Shown piece by piece: positions 12,101 through 53,876 of a stretch of 64,000 nucleotides of DNA. The position numbers and the translations under genes are program-made. Position 1 is the stretch's first letter, and each line of letters starts with the position of its first letter. Below the pieces are notes generated by a model that saw nothing but the letters and a program-made list of their open reading frames with translations, made no database searches and was not told the DNA's origin. Where the stretch lies: positions 227,206-291,205 of the forward strand of contig CAZMBC010000001.1 in assembly GCA_964564685.1 (NCBI GenBank). The letters are read 5' to 3'. Source of the stretch: an uncultured Christensenella sp. (GTDB lineage: Bacteria > Bacillota > Clostridia > Christensenellales > UBA1242).

Positions 12101-15100
12101 CGGTGTTTGTTTCTACATCAAAGTAATCTTTAATATAATCCACAAGTGTGGTTAGTGATTGTGTAGTTGTACATAACTTGCTGTCGTTTAGGGTTAGGTA
12201 GAAAGTGTCGTTTGAATAAACAACTGCTATTTCTGCACCAAGAATATTAGTGTATAACTCTACTTGTAGTGGGTTGTAATTTACAACAACTTTTGCGTCT
12301 AAATTATACTCACCATAATTTAAGGTTAAGTTTCCACTTATACCTGTGCCATTTATCATGTTTTTTACTGGTTCTACAAAGTCTGCCAAGTCAAACACAT
12401 TTATGTAGTTATATTCTGGCAAGTTAAACTCAAACTCGTTGTAACTAATATTAACCGCATATTCCGTGCCATTAAACGTGCACGCAGCACGGGTAATAAG
12501 ATTGTTATTTATAGTAAAGTTAAGCATCATATCTACAAGGTCAATTGATATTATATTGCCAGTTTGATAAATGCCCGCATAGTCAATTTGAGTGCTATCC
12601 AAAATTGCAAACATAGAAGCAAAAACATCTTTAGCCTCACCATTTGGCAAAGCAGAAATTACTAGCTCTGCTATGTCATCACAATCTGCCACTAGTTTTA
12701 ATGCAGAGGCATCTACATATACTTTGCCGTTTGTGTAGTATAAATCTGCATTAACTCCAAACATGCTTGTGTTAGCAACAGCGTTTAATGTGTTAAGGTT
12801 AAGACTAACGCTAACATCTACATCATCAAACTGACCATCGCAATTAATATATGATTGCTCCGTTAGCATAATTAGGGCTTTTGCCAAATTAAGCGCAGGG
12901 GCAATATTGTTGTAATCCGCCGTGTTAACGCTAGGCAAATGTGCTTGTGTATTATCAATTGTAACTCCCGCACTAAAGTTTGGTGTGGTAATCAAAAGAT
13001 TGTCAAAGCGAGTATTTCCAAACAACTTAACAACATATTCGTTGTAAATTGCTGTAAGTTCCCCGTTGTTAAGCGTAATATCTTTAATCAACCCATCAAC
13101 AATTGCTACAAGTTTGTTTGCATCAATTTGTGGTAATTGAATATTTAAATCAAGATTGTATTTTACTTGTAGCCATTCCACAAATGCGCCAATATCGTTT
13201 ACAGCAACGCAAAGTTTATACTCCTCAACCTCAATGTACAAATATCCTTCCATGTAATGGAAATTAATTTCCACGCCATTTAAGCAACTATTTGCATAAA
13301 TTTGTTTTGCGTTTAAATCAGCAGCATAGTTAAAAGTAATGTTATAGCCAAAACCATTAAACATAATTTCACCCGCAAAAGTGTTTAAAACAGCGTCTTT
13401 TATGTGGTTAATCATATCTAAATAGTTAAGCACATTTTCGTATTGTTGTGCATTAACATCAATTTCAAAAGTAGTATAGTTTAGTTGTGCACAGGTGCTA
13501 ATGTCTTTGTAAGAAATTGCGATGCTTTTAATGCGGTTGTTTTGTGCAGTTATTTGCGCTGAAATGCCATTCGTTAACGACAATTTAAGTGTTCCGTCAT
13601 TTTCGGCAAATTTACTAATGTAGTTTAGTGCGTTTTGCGCATCAAACTCTTGCAATTCGCCAACAAGCCCAATTAAGTCAAGTTCGTTTGCAGTAACTCC
13701 CAAAAGCTTAAACAATTGGTCTTTGTAACTTTCAATTTCATTAAGATTAACTAAAAGTTTAAGGTTGTAAGCAGAGATGTACACAACACTGTTTATAAAT
13801 ACAAGTTCTACACTGCGGTTTTTGTATGTTAAAGTAGCACGAACACTAAAGTCATCCGCATTGTGCAAATTAACAACGTAATCTACAATCTGCTCGTTTA
13901 TGTTAACACTGCCCTCAATCGTGATGTACTCGCTTAAGAAAGTGTTCTTGCCATATATAACAAACTCAGCAAGCGAGTTTACACTAACATATTCCTCTTT
14001 TTGTTCAGGTGTAACCTTTACAATTTCTTGCGCAAGGCTATCAAACGAAACATTAACATTGTAATCGTTATACTTTACACCCACAGCCGTTACTTTGTTG
14101 TTTGCGTAGCTAACCGCAAGATATATACTTTCGCCGTTTCCAAAAAGGTCTTGTGCGCTAAAGCTTACACCCGTGCTAGAAATGTTTAGCGTAGAAAGGT
14201 TAATATTTTTAACAATATTTGCAATATCTAACCCGCCAATAACATTTAGCAGTTTTTCCATGTCGTTACTGCTGGTTGGGTCAGCATTTAGCGTGCTGGT
14301 GTTTGGATTGTTGGCAATTTCTTGCTTAAGCATTTCAATTACATCTTTTAGGTCAATAAGTTTGCCCGTAATTTTAATGTTTTCGTCCACATTTACAAAC
14401 AACTCGTCACCTTGCAAAATCGCAACAACATCATAGCCGTAAAGTGTGGTGGAAAGTTGTACAAGCAATTCACCATCAAAGTCAATTTTAATATTAACAT
14501 CAGCATTCTCGCCCGCAATATTTAAATTAACATCAAGTTCGTATGCGGTTTGTTTAAGGTTGTTTACAATCTCATCCAAACCCGCTTTTGTTACAGTAAC
14601 AGGCTCGTATTCAGCGCTATTTATTGCACTTATTTGTGGATTAACGCTTGTGGTGCTAAACACTCCACTTGCGTTGGCATAACTTACACCAAAATCAAGT
14701 AGCTTGTTATTAATTGCAACCACAGTGCAAACATCAGCAAACATAAATTCGTAAACATTATCCATTTTTACAAGGGTAATGTAATGCTGTAAAGTAGAAG
14801 CCAATCCCTTAACCTGCTCCAAAACATCCGACGGAACAAGATTATCCTTTTCTACGCCCAATGCACCACAGATATAACCAGCAAGTGTGGTTAGTGATTG
14901 TGTAGTTGTACATAACTTGCTGTCGTTTAGGGTTAGGTAGAAAGTGTCGTTTGAATAAACAACTGCTATTTCTGCACCAAGAATATTAGTGTATAACTCT
15001 ACTTGTAGTGGGTTGTAATTTACAACAACTTTTGCGTCTAAATTATACTCACCATAATTTAAGGTTAAGTTTCCACTTATACCTGTGCCATTTATCATGT

Positions 15101-16421
15101 TTTTTACTGGTTCTACAAAGTCTGCCAAGTCAAACACATTTATGTAGTTATATTCTGGCAAGTTAAACTCAAACTCGTTGTAACTAATATTAACCGCATA
15201 TTCCGTGCCATTAAATGTGCACGCAACGCGGGTTATGTAATCTTTGTAAATAGTAAAATCAATTTTAACATCATTTAAGTTAAGGCAAATATTGTTACCT
15301 TGTTGTGTAATTGCCTCAAAGTTGATATTTCCTAATGCCGATAGGTCAATTTCCTTAAGTGAGTTAAGTGCTCCAAACACAAAAGACACAGCCTCTTTTT
15401 CTGGGATGTCTGCAATATACTCTTTTAAAAGTTCTACCACATCCTTACAGTCGGTTTTTAATTTAACAATTGGCGCGTCTAAATACATTTTGTTTTGGGT
15501 ATAGTAAAGCGCACCATTTACACCAAAAGCACTTCCTTTTAATACAACGTTTTGGGTGTTAAGGTTAATGTTTGCATCAAAAGCAAATTCCCCAACTGCA
15601 GTTTTGATATTTAAGTAATCCGCAGTTGCAAGTTTAACTCCTCCGCGAAGCAGTGTGAACGCTGGCGAAACATCCATATAGTTGCTAGGTTCACTAACAA
15701 TAACGCCCGAGTTTGTTTTGTTAAGCACAATTGTTGCATTAATAGTTAGGTCGTTATATTTAAAATCCAACAACTCAACTTTTTGCAAGTTGTAATTGCT
15801 ATCCGTATAAATTTCTACATCTACGCTATCGGTTATTGCAAGTAAAAGTTTTGTGCCATTGTCTAGTTTCTCTTCCACAATTTTTTGCTCTAGCGAGGTT
15901 ATTAACGACATGTCAAAATTATCCAACAAGCCATTAAGGTTGCCCACACCTGCAATAGCAAGCACTGCACCCAAACCCTGCATAGCACTATCTGCCTTAA
16001 AACTAATATTTGCGTTCCCGCCCGCAAGATACAATGTTCCGTTTTTGTAAACAATGTTTCCGCTAAAGCGCTTTTCTTCGGCCTCGATGCCTGCATTAAG
16101 GTTAAGCTCTGCACCCGTAAATCCATCGTATAAAACAACATCTCCGCTAATATCTAGCGAAACAGTTTTGCCGTTTTGGCTAACGCTGGCGCTAATTTGC
16201 GCAGACAGGTCTTTTAACGACATAATATTGTTTACCATTTGCCCTAAAGCCGATTGTTCGGGTTTGGAAAGTATAGGACTAGAACCCGAATAGCTGTTGC
16301 TTGCCGAAAGCACAACAATACCCGCAACCATAACAGTGCACAAAATGTATGTTGCCACATAAACAAACATACGCCTAAAAGAAAACTTAACTTTCTTTTT
16401 TAACTTCTTTGTTTTTTTCAT
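6159..16421 (-). CDS. Giant (3,420 aa) membrane-anchored modular surface protein with C-terminal Listeria-Bacteroides (Flg_new / InlB B-repeat type) repeats
   Basis: Uninterrupted 10.26-kb ORF. N-terminus is MKKTKKLKKKVKFSFRR followed by a hydrophobic helix (signal anchor). At least 13 modules of about 180 aa share a motif like YxxNxxY(L/V)D(V/A)xGLKL followed by a helix. The C-terminus has repeats such as TYNFVSGWYTDAEQTNEF...AYAKWS, YYNFLGWSLTPGGE...LYANWN and YAHLGWSLTTDGSEA...IYALWN. Confidence 0.85.
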   Translation of the reverse strand: MKKTKKLKKKVKFSFRRMFVYVATYILCTVMVAGIVVLSASNSYSGSSPILSKPEQSALGQMVNNIMSLKDLSAQISASVSQNGKTVSLDISGDVVLYDGFTGAELNLNAGIEAEEKRFSGNIVYKNGTLYLAGGNANISFKADSAMQGLGAVLAIAGVGNLNGLLDNFDMSLITSLEQKIVEEKLDNGTKLLLAITDSVDVEIYTDSNYNLQKVELLDFKYNDLTINATIVLNKTNSGVIVSEPSNYMDVSPAFTLLRGGVKLATADYLNIKTAVGEFAFDANINLNTQNVVLKGSAFGVNGALYYTQNKMYLDAPIVKLKTDCKDVVELLKEYIADIPEKEAVSFVFGALNSLKEIDLSALGNINFEAITQQGNNICLNLNDVKIDFTIYKDYITRVACTFNGTEYAVNISYNEFEFNLPEYNYINVFDLADFVEPVKNMINGTGISGNLTLNYGEYNLDAKVVVNYNPLQVELYTNILGAEIAVVYSNDTFYLTLNDSKLCTTTQSLTTLAGYICGALGVEKDNLVPSDVLEQVKGLASTLQHYITLVKMDNVYEFMFADVCTVVAINNKLLDFGVSYANASGVFSTTSVNPQISAINSAEYEPVTVTKAGLDEIVNNLKQTAYELDVNLNIAGENADVNIKIDFDGELLVQLSTTLYGYDVVAILQGDELFVNVDENIKITGKLIDLKDVIEMLKQEIANNPNTSTLNADPTSSNDMEKLLNVIGGLDIANIVKNINLSTLNISSTGVSFSAQDLFGNGESIYLAVSYANNKVTAVGVKYNDYNVNVSFDSLAQEIVKVTPEQKEEYVSVNSLAEFVIYGKNTFLSEYITIEGSVNINEQIVDYVVNLHNADDFSVRATLTYKNRSVELVFINSVVYISAYNLKLLVNLNEIESYKDQLFKLLGVTANELDLIGLVGELQEFDAQNALNYISKFAENDGTLKLSLTNGISAQITAQNNRIKSIAISYKDISTCAQLNYTTFEIDVNAQQYENVLNYLDMINHIKDAVLNTFAGEIMFNGFGYNITFNYAADLNAKQIYANSCLNGVEINFHYMEGYLYIEVEEYKLCVAVNDIGAFVEWLQVKYNLDLNIQLPQIDANKLVAIVDGLIKDITLNNGELTAIYNEYVVKLFGNTRFDNLLITTPNFSAGVTIDNTQAHLPSVNTADYNNIAPALNLAKALIMLTEQSYINCDGQFDDVDVSVSLNLNTLNAVANTSMFGVNADLYYTNGKVYVDASALKLVADCDDIAELVISALPNGEAKDVFASMFAILDSTQIDYAGIYQTGNIISIDLVDMMLNFTINNNLITRAACTFNGTEYAVNISYNEFEFNLPEYNYINVFDLADFVEPVKNMINGTGISGNLTLNYGEYNLDAKVVVNYNPLQVELYTNILGAEIAVVYSNDTFYLTLNDSKLCTTTQSLTTLVDYIKDYFDVETNTEISAEDVENIKDAVNALDAYITFIKTDDIYKFMFEGVTTSISVNNNLLDFGVSYANASGVFSTTSINPQISAINSAEYETITITKAGLDEFVNNIKQTAYEANVQVNLLDSVIDISVKIDFTNGLLINLDTTVYDYNVAVVVQGDELYINVDENIKVSGKITELDVIIQKLKDELSNQSQTSALNASANTDDLNNLLDALMNLDVNTILNNINLSSLNVTTRGVSFSADNLLNSGEHIYFAVNYSNNRITALNVGLNDVVLNAQLNEQVTKPVELSAEEKAKYTNISTLADFIIYSKNTYLSEYINLNGYVKVNGVQVAYSVNLYNNPNPVLSGSIEYNERTLNFVYINNLVYLKAYNLKLKCNVSEIANYKDDILTLLGISANALDFSDITNTINEFDMQNALKYLTKFNANDNRLIAQINNEFDVEILGENSKLSALKLTYKNVEVSASATYNYFEVSQPVTAEYVDILSYIDWANNTKNTLMGNISGDITIGVGANVFTLNYIANISQQKAYVYTTILEKQVSVYLQNNCLYVAVDGYKLSFELTQINEFLTWLNTTFNLDVTLNTNISVTNSEIIALVDGLLKDITLTQHEFVGKYMGYTLTLSGETELTNIALVGDGVSANMQVYGTQNNLPSLTVAEYRQWDLTADIISSVYDLVDNTTFNLEMNLVLNENTYKAFAHIDLNSNIIKLNTSISGYELNIIYQNNNIYLDVDGLKLYDSVNNLKETLAYLSQLFNIDLSGSETAFSGLENFNINDIFTTIKINYFGEGENYVNLNVKDVLNLKETLEITDETLVDVKLWHTDGVVNKVDISSMGMQLSVALLEQQEVKPLTEQEINEYTTVISDLNNYTERLINSYQSVKTDKGYAISGDIAVRYSKLKLQGKLTLNVVNDKIYAHISSDAFGVNTNIYLVNNQVYVDVAGLKICISISEQDINYIIDWVNENFNTNIQFKFEGSMLQVKTPALRDVIFDLTENNFGIGITKYVLGGNLNTEFLDLMLNLEFMQDTLGAIDITTNVTDDNTVIYDQGYASDAYDFESEASKKKNLIMRINELAFGAGVDSTVWGFDVNGNITEINGESVVVYNSYDKVLDVVEYALNFYKSGNLDFSADLIVNEQVGETVRPVVALNNGRIYTALTLDDKLAVTDGELYAGGELTEYNYTNPNEEPSVTHSIKAYYDNSYLYASYTHNKKVFDASSSSTVITEQVKTNDQSLNIKIRKNSISEIASIVLHVLNIDLGSFAQKLNIPECDLDVSNFHNLLGIKPNNSGELVSSVDSLLSNISDIVAMVKNINLTVLNNQSTFTISLNVNGQTLVLTINFVDGVLDYISANNIAVGNSRTLDVAITHNVANTAEEPTLEKDFTKLYNTSDEHIDLSDASNLLKALINTSAMNDYYISGKVALTFNIVGLNIDAATIDVGVQVKIVDGKPTAMISIQNMPIITGSLIQLTGINSNGGNGFGSRKRNINIYLRDDIAIIHTSDEEFSSSVPKYDRVTKIPASAIFSNIEYYLQYMMGFGSMIEDPINQSIENGRNRPCGINICNVINSFVQTGNQFDMAINLSELAFSTDIGTMAVSLTTTAIDVLDGEQTKTMDYLHKMAVNIDIMGMINIQNSLTDNPLVLDIGKEVDITPIEAFIKKFATTTMYQEKVSVGGGTYTTTNTASAGVDFVVNGNTISTTGEVGTPISYPGVDVITNTTANGNQFTYNFVSGWYTDAEQTNEFTTINYPRFEKETAYAKWSSYTLVNDYTAATIQYNGTKQLPSLVSYQTTNETTKVITYYNFLGWSLTPGGELLESTNIQPQGTTLYANWNVVEKLPYTFNLYDNNNTLLYTEIVGEGANINIQNFSTQALKYYTDVNCTLAYTGDFTMPDGNLNLYVRKVTLTFSLQTFSGNSGTIKFYQNGSEVGTSLTYYEGEVVDLTQFSATWEYTEGLIFKRNYYYAHLGWSLTTDGSEATEYTVGAQDATIYALWNQTAIKK
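12143..12476 (-). repeat. 334-bp block 100% identical to 14882-15215
   Basis: Base-by-base comparison of the two stretches shows identity from caagtgtggttagtgattg to ccgtgccattaaa. The first mismatch is at 12477/15216 and flanks diverge quickly. Confidence 0.95.
14882..15215 (-). repeat. 334-bp block 100% identical to 12143-12476
   Basis: See the partner copy. Encodes ...CTFNGTEYAVNISYNEFEFNLPEYNYINVFDLADFVEPVKNMINGTGISGNLTLNYGEYNLDAKVVVNYNPLQVELYTNILGAEIAVVYSNDTFYLTLNDSKLCTTTQSLTTL in both copies. Confidence 0.95.
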
Positions 16422-20331: not shown

Positions 20332-20373
20332 ATAAAAAACTTGTTAACGTAAAATTTTAAAGTATTAAAAACA

Positions 20374-20406
20374 AAAACATTATCTATAAGTAGATAATGT
20401 TTTTTA
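20374..20406 (+). terminator. Rho-independent terminator after ORF 19156-20331
   Basis: AACATTATCTA (20377-20386), loop TAAG, TAGATAATGTT (20391-20401), followed by a T-run. Confidence 0.7.
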
Positions 20407-20485
20407 TTTTTAACTTGAATTGTTAATATTAATTAAGTTTGTTAGTTTGTTCCACATATATCCAAACGACAACAAACACCAAAAG

Positions 20486-25799: not shown

Positions 25800-25889
25800 A
25801 TTTCAAAGGCAAATTTAAATGCTAAAATCACAATAATTTTACTGATTTAATTAAGTGAATTAATTTCCTAATTTAATATATTTTACAAC

Positions 25890-25920
25890 AAAAAAGAGCG
25901 ATACTTTCGCTCTTTTTTGT
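25890..25920 (+). terminator. Rho-independent terminator after cvpA-like gene
   Basis: AAGAGCGA (25894-25901) pairs with TCGCTCTT (25907-25914), followed by a T-run. Confidence 0.7.
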
Positions 25921-26144
25921 TTTTTATAATTTCCAATATATCCAACTTTTTATCGCATTAGTACTTGTATTATAAACATAAAATTGTGTTTTGTAATTAT
26001 TTAAATCAGTGCATATTTTTTATTCATATTTATAGTTTATCACGCTTGCTTTGTATTAATAAAACTTATTTCGTTTTGTTATGTTGTATTTCAGCTTTGT
26101 TTCTATTACAACTTAATAGTATAGTGCGCATCAAATTAATTGGC

Positions 26145-27029
26145 TTACAATCGGTTAATAAGTTCGTAAATACGGTCCAAATCGTCAGCATTGTAGTAGT
26201 CAATATAAATTCTACCCTTCTTTTCGTTGCCCATAATGCCAACTTTAGTTGCAAATTTCTTTTGCATAGTGTTTACAAATTCGTTTAGCTCCATACTTAA
26301 CGTTTGCTTTGGTTTTTTTGTTGGAGATTGCAGTTCCTTAACTGCTTTTTCCATATCTCTAACAGTTATCTTTTTTGTAACCGCCTGTTTTGCTAATCTT
26401 AACTGAACCTCGGGATCTTCCACAACAACCAAACTACGCGCATGTCCTGCACTTAATTTTCCGCTTTCAATTAACTCTATAACAGCAGGGCATAAATTTA
26501 ATAGCCTTAAGTAGTTTGCAACAACAGGTCTGCTTTTGCCCAACTTGTCGGCCAAATATTCTTGCGTCCAACCATAATTGGTTAACAGCTCTTTCATTCC
26601 TTTTGCAGTTTCTATAGGGTTTAAATCTTCCCTTTGTATATTTTCAAGTAGTGCAATCTCTTGAACTTCTTGATTTGTATAATCCCTAATAATTGCAGGA
26701 ATTTCTTTCAAACCAGCAAACTTGCTTGCTCTAAAACGTCTTTCACCAGCAACAATTATGTATCTATCCCCATTTGGTTTTAGTATTATTGGCTGAATAA
26801 CACCATATTCTTTAATACTTTGTGCAAGTTCTTTAATAGCGTTTGAATCAAAATTTTTACGCGGTTGATTAGGGTTGTTGTCAATAAGTGACATATTTAT
26901 AACATTTACATCCGCATTTTTGTCAGAAACCGCCTTTTCTTTAATTTCTTGAATGTCTACTTTTTCTTCTTCGTTTTCAAATATTCCAAGCAAAGAACCT
27001 AAACCTCTGCCTAAACCTCTTTCCTTCAT
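26145..27029 (-). CDS. parB: Chromosome partitioning protein ParB/Spo0J
   Basis: ParB box IIVAGERRFRASKFAGL, HTH region WTQEYLADKLGKSRPVVANYLRLL, 294 aa. Confidence 0.9.
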   Translation of the reverse strand: MKERGLGRGLGSLLGIFENEEEKVDIQEIKEKAVSDKNADVNVINMSLIDNNPNQPRKNFDSNAIKELAQSIKEYGVIQPIILKPNGDRYIIVAGERRFRASKFAGLKEIPAIIRDYTNQEVQEIALLENIQREDLNPIETAKGMKELLTNYGWTQEYLADKLGKSRPVVANYLRLLNLCPAVIELIESGKLSAGHARSLVVVEDPEVQLRLAKQAVTKKITVRDMEKAVKELQSPTKKPKQTLSMELNEFVNTMQKKFATKVGIMGNEKKGRIYIDYYNADDLDRIYELINRL

Positions 27030-27042
27030 GTTTCACCTACTT

Positions 27043-27810
27043 TTATTTGTTTTTTTCTAAAAATTCTTCCGTTAATTGCTTGTATGCAATTGCCCCTGTG
27101 CTTTTGGGGTCATACATATTAATTGGTTCGCCATAACTTGGGGCTTCCGCTAGTCTGATATTCCTTGGAATAATTGTTTTGTATACTTTTTCCTTAAAAT
27201 ATTTGCCTATATCGTTAGCAACCAAATGACCTAAATTACTTCGACCATCTTTCATCGTTAACACCACACCCTCTACGTCCAAATCAGGATTTAGCTCATG
27301 CTTTTTGATAAGTTTAATTGTATACATTAATACGCTAATTCCCTCTAATGCAAAATATTCACATTGAATTGGAATTATTACACTATTGCTAGCCGTTAAT
27401 GCATTCACTGAAATTAAACCCAATGATGGTGGGCAGTCGATACAAATAAAGTCGTATTTATCCTTAATTTTTGTTAATGCTTTTTTTAGCACCTTTTCAC
27501 GATTGTTAACTTCAACCAATTCTATTTCCGCACCTGATAAATCTATATTTGCAGGAATTACAGATAAATTTTGAACTTTGGTTGGCAATATAATGCTCTC
27601 AATTGGCTCTTCATTAATCAAAACATCATAAATGGTTTTAAATTTATCTTCCTTATTAATTCCCACACTACTACTTGCATTACCTTGCGGGTCAACATCA
27701 ATTAGTAAAACTTTTTTACCCATTTCAGCCAAATATGCAGACATGTTAACACACGTAGTAGTTTTACCTACTCCGCCCTTTTGATTAATAAATGAAATTA
27801 CTTTACCCAT
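27043..27810 (-). CDS. parA: Chromosome partitioning ATPase ParA/Soj
   Basis: Deviant Walker A NQKGGVGKTTT, DCPPSLG, 255 aa. Confidence 0.9.
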   Translation of the reverse strand: MGKVISFINQKGGVGKTTTCVNMSAYLAEMGKKVLLIDVDPQGNASSSVGINKEDKFKTIYDVLINEEPIESIILPTKVQNLSVIPANIDLSGAEIELVEVNNREKVLKKALTKIKDKYDFICIDCPPSLGLISVNALTASNSVIIPIQCEYFALEGISVLMYTIKLIKKHELNPDLDVEGVVLTMKDGRSNLGHLVANDIGKYFKEKVYKTIIPRNIRLAEAPSYGEPINMYDPKSTGAIAYKQLTEEFLEKNK

Positions 27811-27918
27811 CTTCCCTCCTTATATTTATTTCAGTTATCGTATTATATCAAACTATTTTGTTATTTCAAAATTATAAAAAGTATTTTCTTATACATTTTA
27901 AACAAATTTAAGTATTAT

Positions 27919-28641
27919 TTATCCCAAAGGTCGCAAACGCACCTTGTTTTGCAAGCGCGGATATTTTTTAGGTGTTGCTTCAGTTTTACTAAACACCATT
28001 ATATTTCTTTCAATGTTTTCGTCATCGTTTTTTAAAGTAAAACTTAAATTTTCTTTTAGTTTAAGATGCAGTATATTTAGCGTATTTTTGCTTTCTTCCA
28101 ATTCTGCCTTATATCTTTTACCCTTATAAGCAAGTATTTCGCCATTTATTTTTACAAAAGCAACACAATATTCCAGCAAACTACTTAAGTTTGCAACCCC
28201 TCTTGCTACACAATATTCAAATTTTTCTCTATATTCAATTTTTTGAGCAACATCCTCACATCTAGTATGGATAATTTCGCAACTATTCAAGTTAAGCTCT
28301 CTTGCTACCATTTTAATAAATTCCACTTTTTTATTAACGCTATCAATAATTAAGAACTTTAAGTCATTTCTTACAATCATTAATGGAATGCTAGGAAAAC
28401 CAGCTCCTGCACCAATATCAACCACACTCGCATTTGCTTTAAAGTATTTATAAGGCAAAACACTATCAATCATATGTTTTATAATCATTTCATCAATATC
28501 TGTTATAGAAGTAAGGTTGTATTTAGCGTTTTCACTTAAAATTAAGTCAATATATTTTTCAAATTGCTCACACTGTCTATCATTTAAAAGCACATCATGC
28601 TTTGCGAATATTCTTTTTATTTTAAACTGCAAATCAATCAT
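27919..28641 (-). CDS. rsmG: 16S rRNA (guanine527-N7)-methyltransferase RsmG (GidB)
   Basis: SAM-binding VVDIGAGAGFPSIPL. Conserved context between mnmG and parA. Confidence 0.85.
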   Translation of the reverse strand: MIDLQFKIKRIFAKHDVLLNDRQCEQFEKYIDLILSENAKYNLTSITDIDEMIIKHMIDSVLPYKYFKANASVVDIGAGAGFPSIPLMIVRNDLKFLIIDSVNKKVEFIKMVARELNLNSCEIIHTRCEDVAQKIEYREKFEYCVARGVANLSSLLEYCVAFVKINGEILAYKGKRYKAELEESKNTLNILHLKLKENLSFTLKNDDENIERNIMVFSKTEATPKKYPRLQNKVRLRPLG

Positions 28642-28677
28642 ATTAAATCCTTTTTTTTGTTTAACAGTTTTTAAAAA

Positions 28678-28693
28678 TGTTTCACGTGAAACA
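28678..28693. other. parS centromere-like site TGTTTCACGTGAAACA (core of 22-bp palindrome 28675-28696)
   Basis: Perfect 16-bp palindrome matching the Firmicutes parS consensus tGTTnCACGTGAAACa. It lies 37 nt upstream of the rsmG start. Confidence 0.8.
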
Positions 28694-29122
28694 TTTGTGG
28701 ATTATGTTAGTTTTGATTTTTTCAACAAAACAAATCTATTCATCTAGTTTTTTTCAATCAATAATACTATTCATAACGCTAGATAAATTATGTAAATTAG
28801 CATAGTTTTAATTTATTTAAATACAAACAATTATAAATTCACCAATATGTTTATTTGTAGCATCAATTAATTAAAAGTTATGCATAGTATTATCTTATTT
28901 ATAATTAAACACAGCGTATTAGTGTCGATTTAAAATTGTTTATGTTTTAGTATAACATGAAACTATTTTCATATCAATCAAATCAACCAATTTAATGTTA
29001 AACTGTATTACTTGATATGTTATTTTGTATTTATTTTTTAATATAAACTTTAATTATAAAAATCACAATAAAGGACACATCTTTAATTTAATTAGTCTAT
29101 GTTTTATCCAATAACAAAAAAA

Positions 29123-29138
29123 TGTTTCACGTGAAACA
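29123..29138. other. Second identical parS site TGTTTCACGTGAAACA (22-bp palindrome 29120-29141), also with terminator geometry after mnmG
   Basis: Identical 22-bp palindrome AAATGTTTCACGTGAAACATTT flanked by A- and T-runs, about 80 nt downstream of the mnmG stop. Confidence 0.8.
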
Positions 29139-29218
29139 TTTTTTATTCTTAAAATTAATTTAACTTACATTCAAACAATAATATCAAAAAGTTTAAAATA
29201 ATGTTTAAATAGATAACT

Positions 29219-31081
29219 TTAATTTTTATTATAAGCTTTCATATAAACAATTAACACACTAATATCTGCAGGACTAACACCGCTTATTCTGCTTGCTTGC
29301 CCGATATTAATTGGTTTTATATTGTTAAGTTTTTGTCGAGCTTCTAATCTTAAGCCTTTAATCTGATTATAATCCATATCTAAAGGCAGTTCCATATTTT
29401 CTTGCTTTAATTGAGAATGAATTTGAACATCCTGTCTATTTAAATATCCCTCATACTTTGCAGATATTTCTACCTGTTTTAGCACTTCGGCATCAAATTT
29501 ACTGAATTCAGGATACAATTGTACAACATCCTTATATGTTACAATCTTTCGCTTTAACGCATTAAACAAACTTATTCCTGTACTTCCAACACTTTCGCCA
29601 CATTTCTCAATATATTTTGCAATAGGGCTTTTAGAATTTTGAATTTTACTCATCATTTGTGTACATTCTTTAATACTAGACATTTTTTGTAAAAATTTTT
29701 CATAATAGTTTTTGTCAATATAACTATACTTTTTGCCAATTTCCGTCAATCTAATGTCAGCATTGTCCTGTCTAAGTAGCAATCTATACTCTGCTCTGCT
29801 AGTCATCATTCTATATGGTTCGGCAGTTCCTTTTGTAACAAGGTCGTCTATTAAAACTCCAATATACGCTTCGTTACGTTTTAATACAAGTTGTTCTTTT
29901 CCTAATACTTTTTGACTTGCATTTATACCTGCAATTATTCCTTGAGCTCCCGCTTCTTCATAACCACTTGTTCCGTTAATTTGACCCGCAAAATACAATC
30001 CGCTATATTGTTTACTTTCCAGTGTTGGGTATAGCTGGCGAGGATCTATGCAGTCATATTCAATAGCATAAGCATCGCGCATTATGTGAGCATTTTCCAA
30101 ACCGATAACCGAATACACCATTTTTTCTTGAATGTCGACAGGCATACTTGTACTAAAGCCTTGCACATAAACCTCTTTAGTAGAAAGGGATTCTGGTTCA
30201 AGGAAAAGTTGATGTTTATCTTTATCTGCAAATCTTACAACTTTTGTTTCGATGCTAGGGCAATATCTTGGACCTTCGCCTTTTATTACTCCCGAATACA
30301 TGGGTGCTTTATCAAGGTTATCAAGAATTATTTTATGTGTTTCTGGCGTAGTATAAGTTAAGTAACAATCGGCCACATTTTGCGGTTTTTCAGTTGTTCT
30401 AAAGGAAAAAGTTTGAATATCATCATCCCCTTTTTGGACTTCGCACTTGTCATAATTTATGCTATCACCATGCAAACGAACAGGAGTTCCTGTTTTAAAC
30501 CTCATTAATTTAAATCCCAAATCTAGCAAGTTTTTTGTTAAATAGGTTGCGTTTGAAAAACCGTTAGGTCCCTCATTTTTAGTATACTCGCCTACAATAA
30601 TTTTACTGTTTAAGTATACACCCGTACATATAACTACTGCCTTACATTCATAAAACTCACCTTGTGCAGTTTTTAACCCAATAACAGTGTTGCCATCAAC
30701 AACAATTTCGCTCGCCTCTCCCTGTTTAATGGATAAATTTGGCTGATTTTCAAGCGTTTCCTTCATTAAAGTATGATATTTAACTTTATCTGTTTGCGCT
30801 CTTAAGCTTTGAACTGCAACACCCTTTGAAGAGTTTAGCATGCGACGCTGAATTGTCGTTTTATCCGCATTTAAACCCATCTGACCTCCAAGCGCGTCAA
30901 TTTCACAAACAAGATGTCCCTTTGCCGTTCCTCCTATACTAGGGTTGCACGCTAAAAAAGCTATGCTATCCAAATTTAAAGTTAGCATTAGCGTATTTAA
31001 GCCTTTTTTAGCAGATATTAAGGCAGCCTCACATCCAGCATGCCCACTGCCCACCACAATTACATCATAATTTTTTTTCAT
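29219..31081 (-). CDS. mnmG: tRNA uridine 5-carboxymethylaminomethyl modification enzyme MnmG (GidA)
   Basis: FAD motif YDVIVVGSGHAGCEAA, 620 aa, conserved throughout. Confidence 0.95.
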   Translation of the reverse strand: MKKNYDVIVVGSGHAGCEAALISAKKGLNTLMLTLNLDSIAFLACNPSIGGTAKGHLVCEIDALGGQMGLNADKTTIQRRMLNSSKGVAVQSLRAQTDKVKYHTLMKETLENQPNLSIKQGEASEIVVDGNTVIGLKTAQGEFYECKAVVICTGVYLNSKIIVGEYTKNEGPNGFSNATYLTKNLLDLGFKLMRFKTGTPVRLHGDSINYDKCEVQKGDDDIQTFSFRTTEKPQNVADCYLTYTTPETHKIILDNLDKAPMYSGVIKGEGPRYCPSIETKVVRFADKDKHQLFLEPESLSTKEVYVQGFSTSMPVDIQEKMVYSVIGLENAHIMRDAYAIEYDCIDPRQLYPTLESKQYSGLYFAGQINGTSGYEEAGAQGIIAGINASQKVLGKEQLVLKRNEAYIGVLIDDLVTKGTAEPYRMMTSRAEYRLLLRQDNADIRLTEIGKKYSYIDKNYYEKFLQKMSSIKECTQMMSKIQNSKSPIAKYIEKCGESVGSTGISLFNALKRKIVTYKDVVQLYPEFSKFDAEVLKQVEISAKYEGYLNRQDVQIHSQLKQENMELPLDMDYNQIKGLRLEARQKLNNIKPINIGQASRISGVSPADISVLIVYMKAYNKN

Positions 31082-35296: not shown

Positions 35297-36253
35297 TTAG
35301 TTTGTTTTACAGTTATTTTCCATCATTAAAGTTTTTTTAGCTTTATTAAGCCATCGTTCTTCTTCAGTTGTTTTATTTTTTATTTCTTTATGCGCTTTGG
35401 CGTCTAAATCTAATTTGCATACCCATTCCATAATCTCTTTACAATTATTATTAACACTTTCGTTAGGGCTTTTGCTTGCATTTGTAAAGTTTAGAATATA
35501 TTTTTCTACGCCTGTGTTTTTGTTGTTAAGATTGTCTTGCATTATTTTTAAAAGCACAGGCATTTCTTTGGTGGTTGATATAAGAGATTTTATACGCCCA
35601 GCAGTTAGGTTATATTGATACAAATTATCATACATTTTATAGTTAACCATATCTTCAACAAACTTATAAACATCTGTAATATTGTTATCAACAATCTCTT
35701 TATGTATTTCATACATAATTTGCGCTAATTGATAGTTGCGCTCATTTAACGGTCTTACCATTGTTGAACACCCAAGCTCTAAGTCCCCAAAGCACAAAAA
35801 CTGATTATTATAATACAGCTGCTTCGCGTCCCATGTATTTACAGATTGTAATATAACATAGGAATAATCGTCTTTAAATTTTTGTTCTATATGATTAAGC
35901 AATGCGGTTGCGTATCCTTTTTTGCGTTCACCTTTAACAACAGCAAGCTCGTTTATTTCAATAAAGTTTGGCAAAACGCTTTGTATACTTGTTTTTAGTT
36001 CAAACAAGCACATCGCGCACGCTTTATTTTTTTCATTATACAAAACCGCAATCCTTTGCCCATTTTTACAAAAAACCTTTTCTTGCATTTTAATAGTGTC
36101 TTGAAATTTTATTTGGTCAATCTCTCCGCCAATATTTAATATCTCCACACACAAAAATTTTAAATAAGCATAAATCTTTTTTTTATTCTCTTTTATATCT
36201 TTAACTGAATAATATTCAATTGCATTGCCGTTTTTAAGCATATATTTTTCCAT
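35297..36253 (-). CDS. GNAT-family N-acetyltransferase with about 150-aa C-terminal extension of unknown function
   Basis: Acetyl-CoA motif A INELAVVKGERKKGYATALLNHIEQKF. Likely start is ATG 36253 (GAGGTG RBS); the track start at 36292 is upstream. Confidence 0.6.
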   Translation of the reverse strand: MEKYMLKNGNAIEYYSVKDIKENKKKIYAYLKFLCVEILNIGGEIDQIKFQDTIKMQEKVFCKNGQRIAVLYNEKNKACAMCLFELKTSIQSVLPNFIEINELAVVKGERKKGYATALLNHIEQKFKDDYSYVILQSVNTWDAKQLYYNNQFLCFGDLELGCSTMVRPLNERNYQLAQIMYEIHKEIVDNNITDVYKFVEDMVNYKMYDNLYQYNLTAGRIKSLISTTKEMPVLLKIMQDNLNNKNTGVEKYILNFTNASKSPNESVNNNCKEIMEWVCKLDLDAKAHKEIKNKTTEEERWLNKAKKTLMMENNCKTN

Positions 36254-36416
36254 ACCAGCACCTCGTTTAAAATATATTATCACATCCAACAATTATTGTA
36301 AATATCCATAAAGAAAACAACTGCTTACTTTTTTACCTATTTTTCTCTATTTTCCGACAATTCGCGTTATTTTTTATTATAAACCAAACCTTAAAAGTGG
36401 TATTTTATATGAAAAA

Positions 36417-36456
36417 ATAAACTATTTATATAATTTTTAATACATAAATAGTTTAT
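36417..36456 (-). terminator. 13-bp perfect inverted repeat downstream of dnaN (weak, all-AT-rich hairpin)
   Basis: ATAAACTATTTAT (36417-36429) and ATAAATAGTTTAT (36444-36456) with a 14-nt loop. Confidence 0.3.
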
Positions 36457-36496
36457 ACACTGGTTTGTATGATAGTTTGATTATCTATAGCTTTTG

Positions 36497-37597
36497 CTAA
36501 ATTATTCTAACTGGCAAAATCAAATACAAAAATTCATCGCCCTCGTTAGGAGTTATTATGCAAGGTGCGATCGTGCTTGTAAAAGAAAGTTTTAAAAACT
36601 CGTTGTTTACAACCCTTAAAGCCTCAGAAAAATATCTCGCATTAAATGCTATAGTTAGGTCGTTTCCATTTAAGGAAATTGTTATATTTTCTTTAATGTC
36701 ACCCAATTCGCTTTTGGAAGATAACACCATAACCTTTTCAGTTATATCAAACTTAACAAGGTTATTTTTATCTATTCTGGAAAGAAGGGAAGCACGCTCT
36801 AACGCGCTTTCTAATTGTTCCTTGCTTAAAATAACACTTGTAGTAAAGTTTGTAGGAATAATTTGGCGATAGTTAATATAGTCACCATCTAGCAAACGCG
36901 TAGTTATTTTAGTGCTATCCAAATCCACCATTAAATGATTGCGCTGAACATAAACCTTAACAGGCACATCTGTATCTTCCAAAAGTTTAGAAATTTCATT
37001 TAAACTACGAGCAGAAACAATAATATTAAAGTCTTTAGTAGAACTCAACACATCCTTTTTAACAAGTGCAAGCCTATAACCATCCAACGCAACAGCAGTT
37101 ACTGTTCCGCCCTGAACTTCTAACTTACATCCTTTTAATATAGGACGACTATCCTCAACTGCTACCGCAAAAATACTTTTAGAAATTAGTGCTTTTAAAT
37201 CCTTTTGCCTTATTTCAAAATAATCAGAATATTCCACCTGCTTAATTTGTGGAAACTCACTAGCGTTAAGGCAAGCAATTTTACCCACGCTATCCGTATA
37301 TTTTATAGAAAGAATATTGTTGTCGTTAAGGTTAAGTTCAATTTGCTCGTTGTTAAGCTTTTTAATATACTCGCTAAACAACTTGCCAGGAACAACTGTT
37401 TCGCCCTCTAATTTAATTTCGCCACGAATAGTCTTTTCAATAGAAAGTTCTAGGTCAGTTGCGCTTAAAGTTAGAGTGCTTTCCTCAGCGGTTAGCTTAA
37501 TACCCTCTAAGATAGGGTTAGTGTTTTTAGTGCTTGTTCCTTTAGACACTTTAAGTAAAGCATCACTTAACTCTAATCCGTCACAAACTAATTTCAT
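36497..37597 (-). CDS. dnaN: DNA polymerase III beta sliding clamp
   Basis: 366 aa. N-terminus MKLVCDGLELSDALLKVSK...NPILEGIKL and three-domain length. Immediately downstream of dnaA. Confidence 0.9.
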   Translation of the reverse strand: MKLVCDGLELSDALLKVSKGTSTKNTNPILEGIKLTAEESTLTLSATDLELSIEKTIRGEIKLEGETVVPGKLFSEYIKKLNNEQIELNLNDNNILSIKYTDSVGKIACLNASEFPQIKQVEYSDYFEIRQKDLKALISKSIFAVAVEDSRPILKGCKLEVQGGTVTAVALDGYRLALVKKDVLSSTKDFNIIVSARSLNEISKLLEDTDVPVKVYVQRNHLMVDLDSTKITTRLLDGDYINYRQIIPTNFTTSVILSKEQLESALERASLLSRIDKNNLVKFDITEKVMVLSSKSELGDIKENITISLNGNDLTIAFNARYFSEALRVVNNEFLKLSFTSTIAPCIITPNEGDEFLYLILPVRII

Positions 37598-37661
37598 TTT
37601 GTTCTCCTTAAATGTAATTTATTTTTAATATTAATTAAATCGTAATAGTATTTATAAAGAA

Positions 37662-37801
37662 TGTGAATATGTGAACAACTTTTTATTTTACAATATCTTG
37701 TATTTTTTTTTGCTGTTTATTTAAAGTTAAGCACTACATATTGATTTTCAAATGTGTATAAACCTGTGAAAAACTTTAAAAACTTGTCCACATCTTCCAC
37801 A
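37662..37801. other. Cluster of DnaA-box-like 9-mers next to an AT-rich tract (candidate oriC module in the dnaA-dnaN spacer)
   Basis: TGTGAATAT 37662-37670, TGTGAACAA 37670-37678, TGTGTATAA 37753-37761, TTGTCCACA 37784-37792 and TCTTCCACA 37793-37801. Each has 1-2 mismatches to TTATCCACA/TGTGGATAA. AT-only tract at 37610-37660. Confidence 0.5.
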
Positions 37802-37823
37802 AAAGGTGTGTTTTTCGCTTTTT

Positions 37824-39164
37824 CTATACACGATTCGCCATACTTTTGATGTCGTTTATAATAACTTTTAGGCGATTGTTTTCTTTTAGATCGTTAGTTA
37901 TCTTCTCACGCGCGTGTATAACTGTGGTGTGGTCTTTTTTTCCAAACAACTGTGCAATTGACGTTAGCGGAAGGTCAAGCATATCGTAAATAATATACAT
38001 ACAAATTTGCCTTGGCTCTACAATCTCTTTGTTTCGTTTTTTGCCCACAAGGTCATCTTTGCTAATAGAAAAGTATTTACATACGCAATCTATAATGCGC
38101 TCGCTAGTTAAACTAACTCGATTAGTGGAAATATGGTCCTTTAATGCTTCTTTAAGGTCGTCCAAAGTAGCTTCTTCCTTTCCTAATAGGGTAGAGTAAA
38201 AGTAAACTTTGCTTAAAATGCCTTCCATTTCGCGGATATTAGTATCGCAATTATCTGCAATATAACTAAGAACCTCGTCGTTAACATTGTATTTTTCTTC
38301 TTGCACCTTTTTTTGAAGAATAGCCAAACGCGTTTCAAAATCAGGTGATTGAATATCCTGTATCAACCCGCTACTAAACCTGCTACGCAACCTTTCTTCT
38401 AGCGTTGCAATCTCTTTAGGATGGCGGTCAGAAGCAATAATAATTTGTTTGTTGTTTTGATACAAATCGTTAAATGTATGAAAGAACTCTTCCTGAGTAG
38501 ATACTTTGTTTGAAATAAACTGAATGTCGTCAATAATAAGAATATCTAAATTACGATATTTTTCACGGAATTTACTATTAGCATAATCTTTGCCACTTTT
38601 AAGGCTTTCAATATAGTCATTAGTAAACTTTTCGCAAGTTACGTAAAGAACTTTTAATTCCGGATAGTTCTTGCGCACATAATTGCCAATAGAATGTAAC
38701 AAGTGAGTTTTTCCTAGCCCAACACCACCGTAAATAAACAAAGGATTTATTCGGCTAAATGGATGCTCTGCCACGCCGCGCGCTGCTGCATATACATAGC
38801 GGTTGGAGTTTCCTACAACAAAGGTGTCAAATGTGTATTTAGGGTTAAAGTTGCAAAGCACATTATTATCTTCGTTATTTTGCGTAATAAGAGCTTCTAA
38901 CCCATATCGTTCGCGCTCGTTAGGGTCAAGCACAACATAATCCTTTATTTCGTCACTAGCAAGCATAAGCGCTTCCTTAATAGCGTTTCCATGAGAGTTT
39001 ATAATGCGCTGTTTTGCTGTTTCGCTAGTGGTGCTTAAATAAAAAATTCCGTCTTTAAAATCCACAGGCTCAAGCGATTTTATCCAAAGGTCAAAGGAGG
39101 TTACTGAAATCTCTTTTTGCAACTTATTTAACGCACTTTCCCAAACATTGTTTAATTTTAACAA
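37824..39164 (-). CDS. dnaA: Chromosomal replication initiator protein DnaA
   Basis: Walker A GGVGLGKTHLLHS, IIDDIQF, and domain IV KKRNKEIVEPRQICMYI...KDHTTVIHA. TTG start at 39164 preceded by an AGGAGG RBS. Confidence 0.95.
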   Translation of the reverse strand: MLKLNNVWESALNKLQKEISVTSFDLWIKSLEPVDFKDGIFYLSTTSETAKQRIINSHGNAIKEALMLASDEIKDYVVLDPNERERYGLEALITQNNEDNNVLCNFNPKYTFDTFVVGNSNRYVYAAARGVAEHPFSRINPLFIYGGVGLGKTHLLHSIGNYVRKNYPELKVLYVTCEKFTNDYIESLKSGKDYANSKFREKYRNLDILIIDDIQFISNKVSTQEEFFHTFNDLYQNNKQIIIASDRHPKEIATLEERLRSRFSSGLIQDIQSPDFETRLAILQKKVQEEKYNVNDEVLSYIADNCDTNIREMEGILSKVYFYSTLLGKEEATLDDLKEALKDHISTNRVSLTSERIIDCVCKYFSISKDDLVGKKRNKEIVEPRQICMYIIYDMLDLPLTSIAQLFGKKDHTTVIHAREKITNDLKENNRLKVIINDIKSMANRV

Positions 39165-39202
39165 TACTTTTACCTCCTAGTGTTTATATATAAATATAAA
39201 AT

Positions 39203-39231
39203 ATTATATCAATTAATAATCCTAAAGTAAA
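39203..39231 (-). promoter_or_regulatory. Candidate dnaA promoter (extended -10)
   Basis: Minus strand reads TTTACT (39231-39226), 17-nt spacer containing TG, then TATAAT (39208-39203). It lies within the 110-bp recF-dnaA spacer. Confidence 0.4.
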
Positions 39232-39274
39232 GAGAAAATGAAAAAATACCCATTTTTTCAGCATATATAACGCT

Positions 39275-40363
39275 TTAATATTGGGTATTTATAGTTCCAT
39301 TTTCAATTATGAATTTGGTGGCAGGAATATCGTAGTTAAAAGAGGTGCAGGTTACAATAGTTTGCAAGTTTTTAACGCGGTTTAGCAATTTTAATTTGCG
39401 GTTTGTATCCAGTTCGCTTAACACATCATCTAGTAACAAAACGGGATATTCACCAATATTGTCTTTAAAAACCTCTAGTTCTGCCAGTTTTAACGCCAAC
39501 GCCACTGTGCGCTGCTGTCCTTGGCTTCCAAAATGACGCACATCAATGTTGTTAAGCGTAATTTTCATGTCGTCACGGTGTGGCCCTATGGTTGTAAAGC
39601 CCAAATTCATGTCCTTTTCCAATGACATATTGTAGCCGTTAAGCAGTTTTTCTTTAATTTCCTGCTCGCTATTACCCACCATACCAACATAAGTTATTTC
39701 CAAACTTTCGTTGTTCTCTGTTAAATAATTTTGCACTTCGTTGGCATAAACTTTTAGTTTATCTATTAGCTTAATGCGTTCCATAATTATTTTACAGCCT
39801 ACCTCAGCCAACTGTTCGTTCCAAATAGAAATTGTGTCGGCAAGTACCTTGCGGTCAGAGGTTACTTTTAAAAGTTTGTTACGCTGTTGTAATATATTAT
39901 TGTACTTGCCTAAATTATAAAAGTAGTTTTTGTTAAATTGCGAAAGGTCAATATCCATAAAGCGCCTGCGTTCGTCCGGACTTTCCTTAACTAATTTTAA
40001 TTCATCGGGTGAAAAGTATATGGCATTAAATTCTCCCATAAGTTCGCCCATTCTTTTTATAGGCAATGAGTTAATTTTAATTGCTTTGTTTTGATTGTTA
40101 AACAAATAAACCTCAATTTTTCCATTGCCAAGTTTTTTGCTAACTTCTAGCGTAATTTTACTAAATGAGCATCCCCACTTAATAAGGTCCTTATCCTTTG
40201 TGGTGCGTGGACTGCGTCCTATAGCGCATAAAAACACACCCTCTAACATGTTTGTTTTGCCTTGTGCGTTTTGCCCAATTAAAACATTAAGTCCGCTGTT
40301 AAAGTGTATTTTTTGATTACTGTAGTTTCGATAATTATTAAGTTGTAAGCTTTTAATAACCAT
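39275..40363 (-). CDS. recF: DNA replication and repair protein RecF
   Basis: Walker A GQNAQGKTNMLEG, signature FGSQGQQRTVALALKLAE, Walker B LLLDDVLSELD. Confidence 0.9.
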   Translation of the reverse strand: MVIKSLQLNNYRNYSNQKIHFNSGLNVLIGQNAQGKTNMLEGVFLCAIGRSPRTTKDKDLIKWGCSFSKITLEVSKKLGNGKIEVYLFNNQNKAIKINSLPIKRMGELMGEFNAIYFSPDELKLVKESPDERRRFMDIDLSQFNKNYFYNLGKYNNILQQRNKLLKVTSDRKVLADTISIWNEQLAEVGCKIIMERIKLIDKLKVYANEVQNYLTENNESLEITYVGMVGNSEQEIKEKLLNGYNMSLEKDMNLGFTTIGPHRDDMKITLNNIDVRHFGSQGQQRTVALALKLAELEVFKDNIGEYPVLLLDDVLSELDTNRKLKLLNRVKNLQTIVTCTSFNYDIPATKFIIENGTINTQY

Positions 40364-40453
40364 ATTTTATATTATATCACAAATTATTAAAAATTCATAT
40401 TGTTTTATACAATTTTTCATGTTATACTAAAGCGTACTAGGAGATTTCTTGTT

Positions 40454-40978
40454 ATGGAAACAATTATATTTGTAGAAAACAAAGCGCAACAAATAAACCT
40501 TAAAATAACATGCGAACACTTTGACGGCCAGGGCCTTGCACAGCGCACTGAAGAGCTAAATCAACAACTAAACACTAGTGGTAAAATAGAAAGTTTTAGC
40601 GGATTTCAAAACGAACATATTTACTTGTTGCTTATGATGCAGGGCGCGATTGTGTGCGCTCATGAAGAAAACAACAAAAAATGCGGAATAAAATATTGCT
40701 ATAATCCGCAAAGCAATAAATTTACAAGCAGTGAATATAATAAACTTCCACAGGAATATATAATATATGACTTGCCTAAAAATGAAAGCTATTGCAACAA
40801 TAACGCTTTTATACGCATACACGGCATGCAAATTAAAGATAATCATTACGATTTTGAAATAAAACACAATGCACTAGGATTTGAAAGTTTTACAATAACA
40901 AAAACTGATGTAAAACAAAACAACAAAGCCAATGCACAAACAATAACATATGTTAAACAATTAGGAGGCAAAATATAA
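40454..40978 (+). CDS. Hypothetical protein (174 aa from ATG 40454)
   Basis: AGGAG RBS before ATG 40454. No recognisable motif. Occupies the recF/gyrB gap. Confidence 0.45.
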   Translation: METIIFVENKAQQINLKITCEHFDGQGLAQRTEELNQQLNTSGKIESFSGFQNEHIYLLLMMQGAIVCAHEENNKKCGIKYCYNPQSNKFTSSEYNKLPQEYIIYDLPKNESYCNNNAFIRIHGMQIKDNHYDFEIKHNALGFESFTITKTDVKQNNKANAQTITYVKQLGGKI

Positions 40979-41165
40979 AGCCTCCTTTTTTATATCTAAA
41001 ACACGCCCAACTTAAAGTTTTATATATTTTACTAACCTCTTGCGTTTAGCGTGTTTTAAGCCCTATATAATGTGTTATTATATATAATAATATATATTTA
41101 TTATAATAATATAATAAAAACGCTTTGTTTAAAAATAAAAATATGTTATAATCTGCATTAAATAA

Positions 41166-43124
<1,959 letters not shown>

Positions 43125-43139
43125 TAAAGGTGAAAGTTT

Positions 43140-53451: not shown

Positions 53452-53741
53452 ATTTAATCCTTATAATACTATGTTATCATATTTTGCTTTGTTGCCGTAA
53501 ATGTTTTTTAATATATTCCTAATTTTTTACTAAACAACTGCGTTATATAACACATCAACCCTCACAAATTCACTTTACTTTGTTGTGCGTTTGTTATACT
53601 ATATTATAGTTAAACTATAGTACAAACATACAGCCTGGTCTGCGCAAAACTTTACACAAAAGATGTTTGCAATTTAAGTTTTCCGCAATAATACGCGTCC
53701 ATAGTGTTTTGAGATAAATTTCACTATGCCCGCAACAATAT

Positions 53742-53816
53742 GCGTCCATAGTGAAATGGATATCACATAAGTCTTCGGAACTTAGATTTCGGGTTCGAGC
53801 CCTGATGGACGCACCA
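53742..53816 (+). tRNA. tRNA-Arg (anticodon UCG)
   Basis: Manual cloverleaf: acceptor GCGTCCA/TGGACGC, D-stem GTGA/TCAC, anticodon stem TAAGT/ACTTA with loop CTTCGGA, T-arm TCGGG-TTCGAGC-CCTGA, discriminator A and encoded CCA. 75 nt. Confidence 0.85.
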
Positions 53817-53850
53817 CTTTGATATGAAAAAGCAAGGGGGAACAAAATAA

Positions 53851-53876
53851 AAAGATTGCCATTAATGGCAATCTTT
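53851..53876. terminator. Bidirectional hairpin terminator between tRNA-Arg and the convergent 556-aa gene
   Basis: Perfect inverted repeat AAAGATTGCCAT/ATGGCAATCTTT (53851-53876) followed by a T-run. Overlaps the stop codon at 53875-53877. Confidence 0.6.

Follow-up and report, generated by a model that had tools for sequence, protein, structure and literature searches.

A conserved cluster of perfect parS sites around rsmG, just upstream of parAB, in a lineage of uncultured Clostridia

Two identical palindromes lie in the mnmG-rsmG gap (28642-29218) of the 64,000-nucleotide stretch of DNA analysed here, which we call the window. The gap measures 577 bp, has a GC content of 19% and is followed, beyond rsmG, by parA and parB. 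The locus raises the question of whether the palindromes form a chromosomal centromere, delimit a spacer that has a function of its own, or serve as control elements for the transcription of the genes beside them.

The two sites, their partition genes and the origin region

The exact 22-mer AAATGTTTCACGTGAAACATTT was found at 28675-28696 and at 29120-29141 and nowhere else in the 64 kb, and 100 shuffled sequences gave zero matches. A first, sequence-only reading of this DNA had pointed out these two copies, correctly; the direct repeat that they share is actually longer, 24 nt (28673-28696 and 29118-29141). Each copy contains the perfect 16-bp core TGTTTCACGTGAAACA, which is the universal chromosomal parS consensus (compared with Table 1 of PMC7022226), and the two sites are 445 bp apart. 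The core of the mnmG-proximal site, parS-1 (29123-29138, assigned to neither strand), begins about 80 nt past the mnmG stop codon; its full palindrome is perfect over 28 bp (29117-29144), with an A6/T6 extension. The core of the rsmG-proximal site, parS-2 (28678-28693, likewise without strand), ends 36 nt before the rsmG ATG, within a full palindrome of 22 bp (28675-28696). A replicon-wide search for parS had been proposed; run over the 64-kb window, it returned only these two sites, with no third one at up to two mismatches to the core. The single parS-like match with three mismatches, at 18725, is at chance level for the window.

On the minus strand the genes are ordered recF, dnaA, dnaN, an unknown 331-aa open reading frame (ORF), rnpA, yidC, jag, mnmE, mnmG, the gap, rsmG, parA and parB, with gyrB and gyrA on the plus strand beyond recF. 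Upstream of the gap, mnmG (gidA; 29219-31081, minus strand) matched TIGR00136 with 842 bits, and rsmG, which encodes the 16S rRNA m7G527 methyltransferase (27919-28641, minus strand), matched TIGR00138 with 166 bits at a cut-off of 99.5. The parA/soj gene (27043-27810, minus strand) was recognised by ParA-family models and encodes a 255-aa protein of the chromosomal type, with the deviant Walker A motif KGGVGKTT in its translation. The product of parB/spo0J (26145-27029, minus strand) is of the canonical CTPase type (TIGR00180, 182.6 bits, cut-off 58). Its score against the Noc model, 232, was under the cut-off of 315, and its best structure match was Spo0J (1vz0, E = 3e-53), followed by 7bnk, 6sdk, 4umk and 6t1f, with the Noc structures lower. 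The alignment to the Spo0J/ParB structures showed the GERRFRA CTP-binding motif, ENIQREDL and the helix-turn-helix to be intact. With perfect 16-bp matches and a canonical ParA and ParB encoded alongside, the palindromes are bona fide parS sites, as the initial identification of the core with the Firmicutes consensus had it.

The presence of the spore-protease gene yyaC in the window, together with the "Clostridia bacterium" names carried by MnmG homologues that are 67-73% identical, places the organism among uncultured spore-forming Clostridia. Some further features of the window were recorded. Between parB and a convergent Colicin-V-production (CvpA-like) gene, at about 25880-25925, the sequence AAAAAAGAGCGATACTTTCGCTCTTTTTT can fold into a strong hairpin (-18.9 kcal/mol) that resembles a bidirectional terminator, an example of what a good one looks like in this genome. 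A giant ORF of 3420 aa occupies 6159-16421 on the minus strand. Two tRNA genes are found on the plus strand (53742-53813 and 55936-56023); since the first falls inside a 103-aa minus-strand ORF (53615-53926), the latter is probably spurious.

The parS pair is origin-proximal, with dnaA and dnaN 8-10 kb off. The probable oriC is the dnaA-dnaN spacer (37598-37823, no strand assigned), which has more DnaA boxes per length than any other intergenic region of the window and lies about 8.5 kb from the pair. The GC skew reached its minimum, and its cumulative curve turned, near 40 kb. More exactly, the strand switch and the skew minimum are near 40.4 kb, whereas the DnaA-box cluster is that of the dnaA-dnaN spacer. 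The gene order of this region (35297-45698) is unusual in that recF lies upstream of dnaA, recF, dnaA and dnaN are on the minus strand like the genes from rnpA onward, and gyrB-gyrA diverge on the plus strand. In one relative, L033, gyrA is found directly upstream of mnmE, so that the origin region has been rearranged within the lineage. Two ORFs here had no NCBIfam match, the 331-aa one in the dnaN-rnpA interval (35297-36292, minus strand) and one of 192 aa in the recF-gyrB interval (40400-40978, plus strand).

Conservation of the sites and of the DNA between them

A search of the GTDB species genomes with MnmG gave no close relative (at most 50% identity). Relatives were taken from the protein database as MnmG homologues of 72-85% identity, and their contigs were retrieved by exact-protein look-up, which yielded five loci whose assembly covered the region (L027, L029, L032, L033 and L035). 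All five had three perfect parS sites around rsmG, and L029 had a fourth with one mismatch. Most of these sites are located in an enlarged, AT-rich mnmG-rsmG gap (189-901 bp, 14-19% GC), some inside the rsmG coding sequence and one, in L035, between rsmG and parA. Every relative has a counterpart of parS-1 as the first site after mnmG, and in L027, L029 (there with one mismatch) and L032 a site lies 14-28 nt ahead of the rsmG start. The spacing, 445 bp here, ranged from 137 to 877 bp in the relatives, and neither a fixed spacing nor a helical phasing was seen between sites here, in the relatives or in the more distant loci described below. The geometry of a twin bracket, as first proposed from the one genome, was not supported by this comparison: across the lineage there are two to four sites, variably spaced and in part within the rsmG coding sequence. 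What is conserved in these loci is the clustering of several perfect sites in the 1.5 kb or so that directly precede parAB, and not a bracket round a functional spacer.

The sites within rsmG are instructive, as there the parS sequence is read in frame. In L032 and L033 it encodes VSRETF in place of EYREKF, or MFHVKH/Q in place of ILHLKL. The sites concerned (L032:6469-6484, L032:6633-6648 and L033:7288-7303) occupy two different positions of the gene. The site is thus selected for as DNA, wherever it is located. Just past its second in-frame site, the RsmG of L032 has in addition an insertion of about 76 aa. Another site of L033 is part of a perfect 44-bp palindrome (L033:6397-6440), with an extension of 14 bp per side. 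Several independent metagenome contigs end at a parS or within about 100 bp of one, namely at the start of L001 (site at L001:10-25) and at the ends of L030 (L030:5951-5966), L034 (L034:6133-6148) and L036 (L036:3290-3305). It seems that de Bruijn assembly breaks down at this locus because the palindrome is repeated. Gene callers, for their part, start rsmG at the ATG within a parS ("MFHVKHF", L027:6237).

A metagenome scan with an RsmG alignment provided 80 more distant Clostridia loci (RsmG 37-45% identical). In the 43 of these that had both genes, the median mnmG-rsmG gap was 15 bp, so that the split of the two genes, already suspected to be unusual, is indeed so and is kept within the lineage. 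Only one of the 43, L046, had parS in this gap, which there measures 1.27 kb. At 13 of 44 distant loci the interval from rsmG to the next par gene contained perfect parS, at least two of them in 12 of these 13, typically as pairs 47-102 bp apart or as arrays with a spacing of about 115 bp. Nine loci of uncultured Clostridia (L037, L043, L048, L051, L074, L078, L081, L104 and L110) have two to four perfect sites, 47-183 bp apart, in AT-rich DNA directly upstream of parA. There, mnmG directly adjoins rsmG, downstream of which the cluster is found, whereas in the present lineage and in L046 the cluster lies upstream of rsmG. With 12 of 13 such loci carrying at least two sites, clusters beside parAB are the norm; a tight cluster beside these genes is common, and in the present lineage it has moved one gene upstream. 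The gap of L046 (L046:470-1740) contains three perfect and four one-mismatch sites, and one more perfect site is found inside the 3' end of mnmG; L046 is an independent case of the arrangement upstream of rsmG.

Does the DNA between the sites have a role of its own? The sequence-only reading had considered a small RNA, a condensin loading site or an origin element, and the unusual size of the gap, its 19% GC and the persistence of the enlargement across the lineage (189-901 bp) would be in line with a gene for an sRNA or a small protein, or with an origin, a DNA-unwinding region or an auxiliary site for the binding of DnaA. The inter-site DNA itself (28697-29116, no strand; about 19% GC) argues otherwise. 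Outside parS and the immediate A/T flanks, the relatives' gaps could not be aligned (mean column identity 39%), which is the outcome of the check on spacer conservation that had been called for, and blastn of the gap with parS masked gave only short, non-collinear AT-rich matches in the relatives. As had been noted, the gap contains no credible ORF: none of at least 50 aa was found within it, and only two of at least 40 aa touch it. One, of 42 aa, is wholly within the gap and starts inside the left parS, an MFHVKH artefact; the other, of 76 aa (28517-28747, plus strand), is mostly antisense within rsmG. A hidden small ORF or pseudogene remnant was rejected, as the six-frame peptides of the gap matched the relatives' gaps in tblastn through parS-encoded residues only. 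An sRNA was dismissed as well. The best Rfam score in the spacer was 15 bits (E = 7.5), a scan of the whole window at the gathering thresholds gave the two tRNAs and nothing in the spacer, and no conserved alignment block was seen.

The origin element fared no better. The 9-mers described as inward-facing and DnaA-box-like beside the two sites are present, TGTGGATTA (28696-28704) with one mismatch and TTATCCAAT (29104-29112) with two mismatches to the DnaA box TTATCCACA, but they are at chance level and neither recurs next to parS in the relatives. The single one-mismatch box in the gap speaks for a DnaA-binding role, but there are 40 such boxes in the window, and the density of boxes at up to two mismatches per 100 bp was 0.87 in the gap, 0.60 in the whole window and 2.65 in the dnaA-dnaN spacer. 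Counted over every intergenic region, the gap was at background and the skew turned elsewhere, near 40 kb; an oriC would be expected to combine several DnaA boxes and an AT-rich unwinding element with a GC-skew switch, and this combination is missing from the gap. We therefore regard a function of the spacer itself as extremely unlikely. There is no sign of an independent gene, small RNA or replication origin in it, and it is unconstrained intergenic DNA that probably carries the rsmG promoter.

Taken together, the palindromes very probably constitute a chromosomal centromere, that is, a lineage-conserved parS cluster that serves the adjoining ParB and ParA. The sites match TGTTNCACGTGAAACA; the ParB has GERRxRA and helix-turn-helix motifs and the ParA a deviant Walker A motif; the location is origin-proximal; and the sites are conserved in otherwise diverged DNA. 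To the observed sites, cognate genes and pattern of conservation and turnover, the established behaviour of the family would add the binding and spreading of ParB and the loading of SMC. If it acts like the ParBs that have been characterised, the protein encoded 1.6 kb downstream would nucleate on the two parS as dimers; these would bind CTP, close into clamps and slide to the flanking DNA, and the resulting partition complex would be moved by ParA (Soj) and would load SMC. In the lineage as a whole, the cluster comprises two to four perfect sites and is confined to a stretch of about 1.5 kb that includes rsmG, directly precedes parAB and is some 8.5 kb from the likely oriC. Selection would then act on the presence of several perfect sites in this zone, and not on their exact number, spacing or intervening sequence.

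Promoters and hairpins at the sites

The proximity of parS-2 to rsmG suggests a second role, in which the site is an operator: ParB bound at parS-2, or spreading from it, would repress the transcription of rsmG and, by read-through, that of parAB, and the par operon would be autoregulated. Indeed, parS-2 ends 36 nt before the rsmG ATG and its counterparts in L027, L029 and L032 lie 14-28 nt before the start, so that in four genomes the rsmG-proximal site is 14-36 nt from the start codon. The weak minus-strand promoter noted earlier by the left site, TTGTTG-N16-CATAAT, does exist (28701-28728, minus strand), although it matches the consensus in 3/6 and 5/6 positions and falls below the threshold of our scan; its start site, if used, would fall inside parS-2. 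There are precedents in the literature, one itself a hypothesis, for a parS that overlaps the -10 element of a gidB promoter in M. bovis BCG (PMC2346475), and one in P. aeruginosa, where ParB represses genes beside the intergenic sites parS3 and parS4 (PMC7022226, section 10).

Other observations weaken the case for an operator. The best sigma-A-like candidate for the rsmG promoter, TTGATA-17-TATACT with an upstream TG (28949-28977, minus strand; 10/12, a match to the consensus only), sits between the two parS, and its leader, of about 300 nt, would contain parS-2. The geometry varies among the relatives: the best TGnTATAAT motif is upstream of the rsmG-proximal parS in L027, L029 and L032, but in L033 and L035 it lies downstream of every site in the gap, and there 83-314 nt separate the ATG from the site closest to it. 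Promoter-like matches are moreover at chance level in this AT-rich region (17 in 27800-29400, with 12.5 +/- 3.9 expected). The strongest of the region, TTGAAA-16-TATAAT with TG (27842-27869, minus strand; 11/12), lies in the rsmG-parA spacer, and its extended -10 element, TGATATAAT (TGGTATAAT in L032), located about 35 nt upstream of parA, is kept in four of six lineage genomes. With a promoter of its own, parA would not depend, and nor would parB, on that of rsmG, and parAB is probably transcribed independently of it. In B. subtilis, finally, loss of Spo0J leaves the expression of parS-adjacent genes unchanged (PMC7022226). On balance we consider an operator function of parS-2 unlikely.

Another possible role concerns parS-1, which might double as an intrinsic, bidirectional terminator or insulator hairpin that keeps read-through from mnmG off the ParB loading zone and rsmG. 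The succession of A-run, hairpin and T-run reported for this site was found (A6-hairpin-U7). The RNA hairpin, with its A:U extension, was calculated at -11.6 kcal/mol, and values between -10 and -14 kcal/mol were obtained for the counterparts in the relatives (z-scores from -2.6 to -5.5). The palindromic extension was also longer at the site that comes first after mnmG than at the others (mean 6.4 against 4.5 bp; p = 0.015 in a one-sided Mann-Whitney test on 7 and 11 sites that are phylogenetically non-independent). Changes in the flanks preserve the dyad symmetry, with G-C, C-G or U-A in place of A-U, and the flank covariation of 0.137, against 0.071 in shuffles, was not reached in any of 500 shuffles. 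Other A/T-flanked hairpins with low-GC stems are apparently used at gene ends in this genome, for example near 20371-20407.

However, a standard terminator scan of 27800-29400 returned none, and a relaxed scan missed the parS sites as well, since the stem, once the A:U extension is left out, has 6 bp with two G-C pairs and is too weak. The role as mnmG terminator that had been suggested for parS-1 is weakly supported, even though its geometry is as described. AAA/TTT flanks are found, too, at the relatives' sites inside the rsmG coding sequence, where a terminator would be harmful, and this speaks against an explanation at the RNA level alone. Dyad symmetry can also come from recognition by a dimeric protein, and the template-switch "perfecting" of quasi-palindromes is an established mutational mechanism from which it could arise. 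A terminator at parS-1 is plausible but rather less likely than not; the longer A/T-flanked palindrome of this site may also give mnmG a weak hairpin terminator.

The flanks themselves deserve attention. At the lineage sites, A was found at positions -1 to -4 in 85-97% of the half-sites, whereas the distant set was A-rich only at -1 (89%) and -2 (63%). The A4/T4 flanks and the symmetry-keeping changes go beyond what the standard 16-bp ParB site would account for and hint at an added constraint, be it a hairpin or an extended recognition sequence. A weak bidirectional terminator, a ParB that prefers an extended site and template-switch perfecting would each fit this pattern. A more elaborate reading would take as functional unit a compensatorily symmetric palindrome of at least 24 bp, made of A-tract, parS and T-tract, that combines ParB loading with an RNA or DNA hairpin shield and is lost and re-created within a narrow permitted zone beside parAB, even inside the rsmG coding sequence. 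If this were true, the hairpin, as terminator or insulator, would shield the ParB loading zone from read-through, but we hold it to be distinctly improbable.

Comparison with known systems and meaning of the cluster

The centromere reading can be set against systems that have been characterised. The B. subtilis Spo0J/Soj system with its TGTTNCACGTGAAACA parS shares with the present one the 16-bp consensus, a canonical CTPase ParB and a Soj-like ParA, and in both the sites are origin-proximal and beside the rsmG-parA-parB block (PMC7022226, Table 1). In B. subtilis, however, ten mostly imperfect sites are distributed over hundreds of kb, one of them inside spo0J, whereas in this lineage two to four perfect sites with conserved A4/T4 flanks are gathered in about 0.5-1.5 kb around rsmG. 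The mycobacterial gidB-parA-parB locus likewise has two exact TGTTTCACGTGAAACA upstream of parB (PMC2346475). One overlaps a promoter in the gidB (rsmG) regulatory region, where autoregulation by ParB was proposed (PMC2346475), an idea that the sequence-only reading of the present locus shares; the second is inside the parA coding region in M. bovis BCG and, in M. smegmatis, at the 5' end of gidB. The mycobacteria do not have the enlarged AT-rich spacer, whereas here both sites are in the 577-bp mnmG-rsmG gap.

Several close sites by parAB that form one partition complex are also found in P. aeruginosa (parS1-4) and S. coelicolor, and tight parS clusters next to parAB occur in C. crescentus, M. 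xanthus and C. glutamicum. These clusters of other phyla have different gene neighbours; here there are two sites, and their positions turn over in the lineage to the point of being embedded in coding sequence. The presence of multiple origin-proximal parS is typical (PMC7333895). The locus is an ordinary, neatly conserved case of a well-known system. The lineage departs from it in minor ways only, by the position of the sites upstream of rsmG and by longer palindromes with A/T flanks.

In practical terms, contigs of several metagenome assemblies end at or close to the repeated parS palindromes, which also yield spurious "MFHVKH..." gene starts. For annotation and for the orientation of the replicon it is useful that the sites mark the centromere and, together with the dnaA-dnaN spacer, the region of the origin. 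Why parS sites cluster and stay close to one another is a recognised open question (PMC7333895, section 5). To this question the lineage contributes a data point, with several perfect sites at free spacing, spacers that are not conserved, and sites embedded in the reading frame of rsmG.
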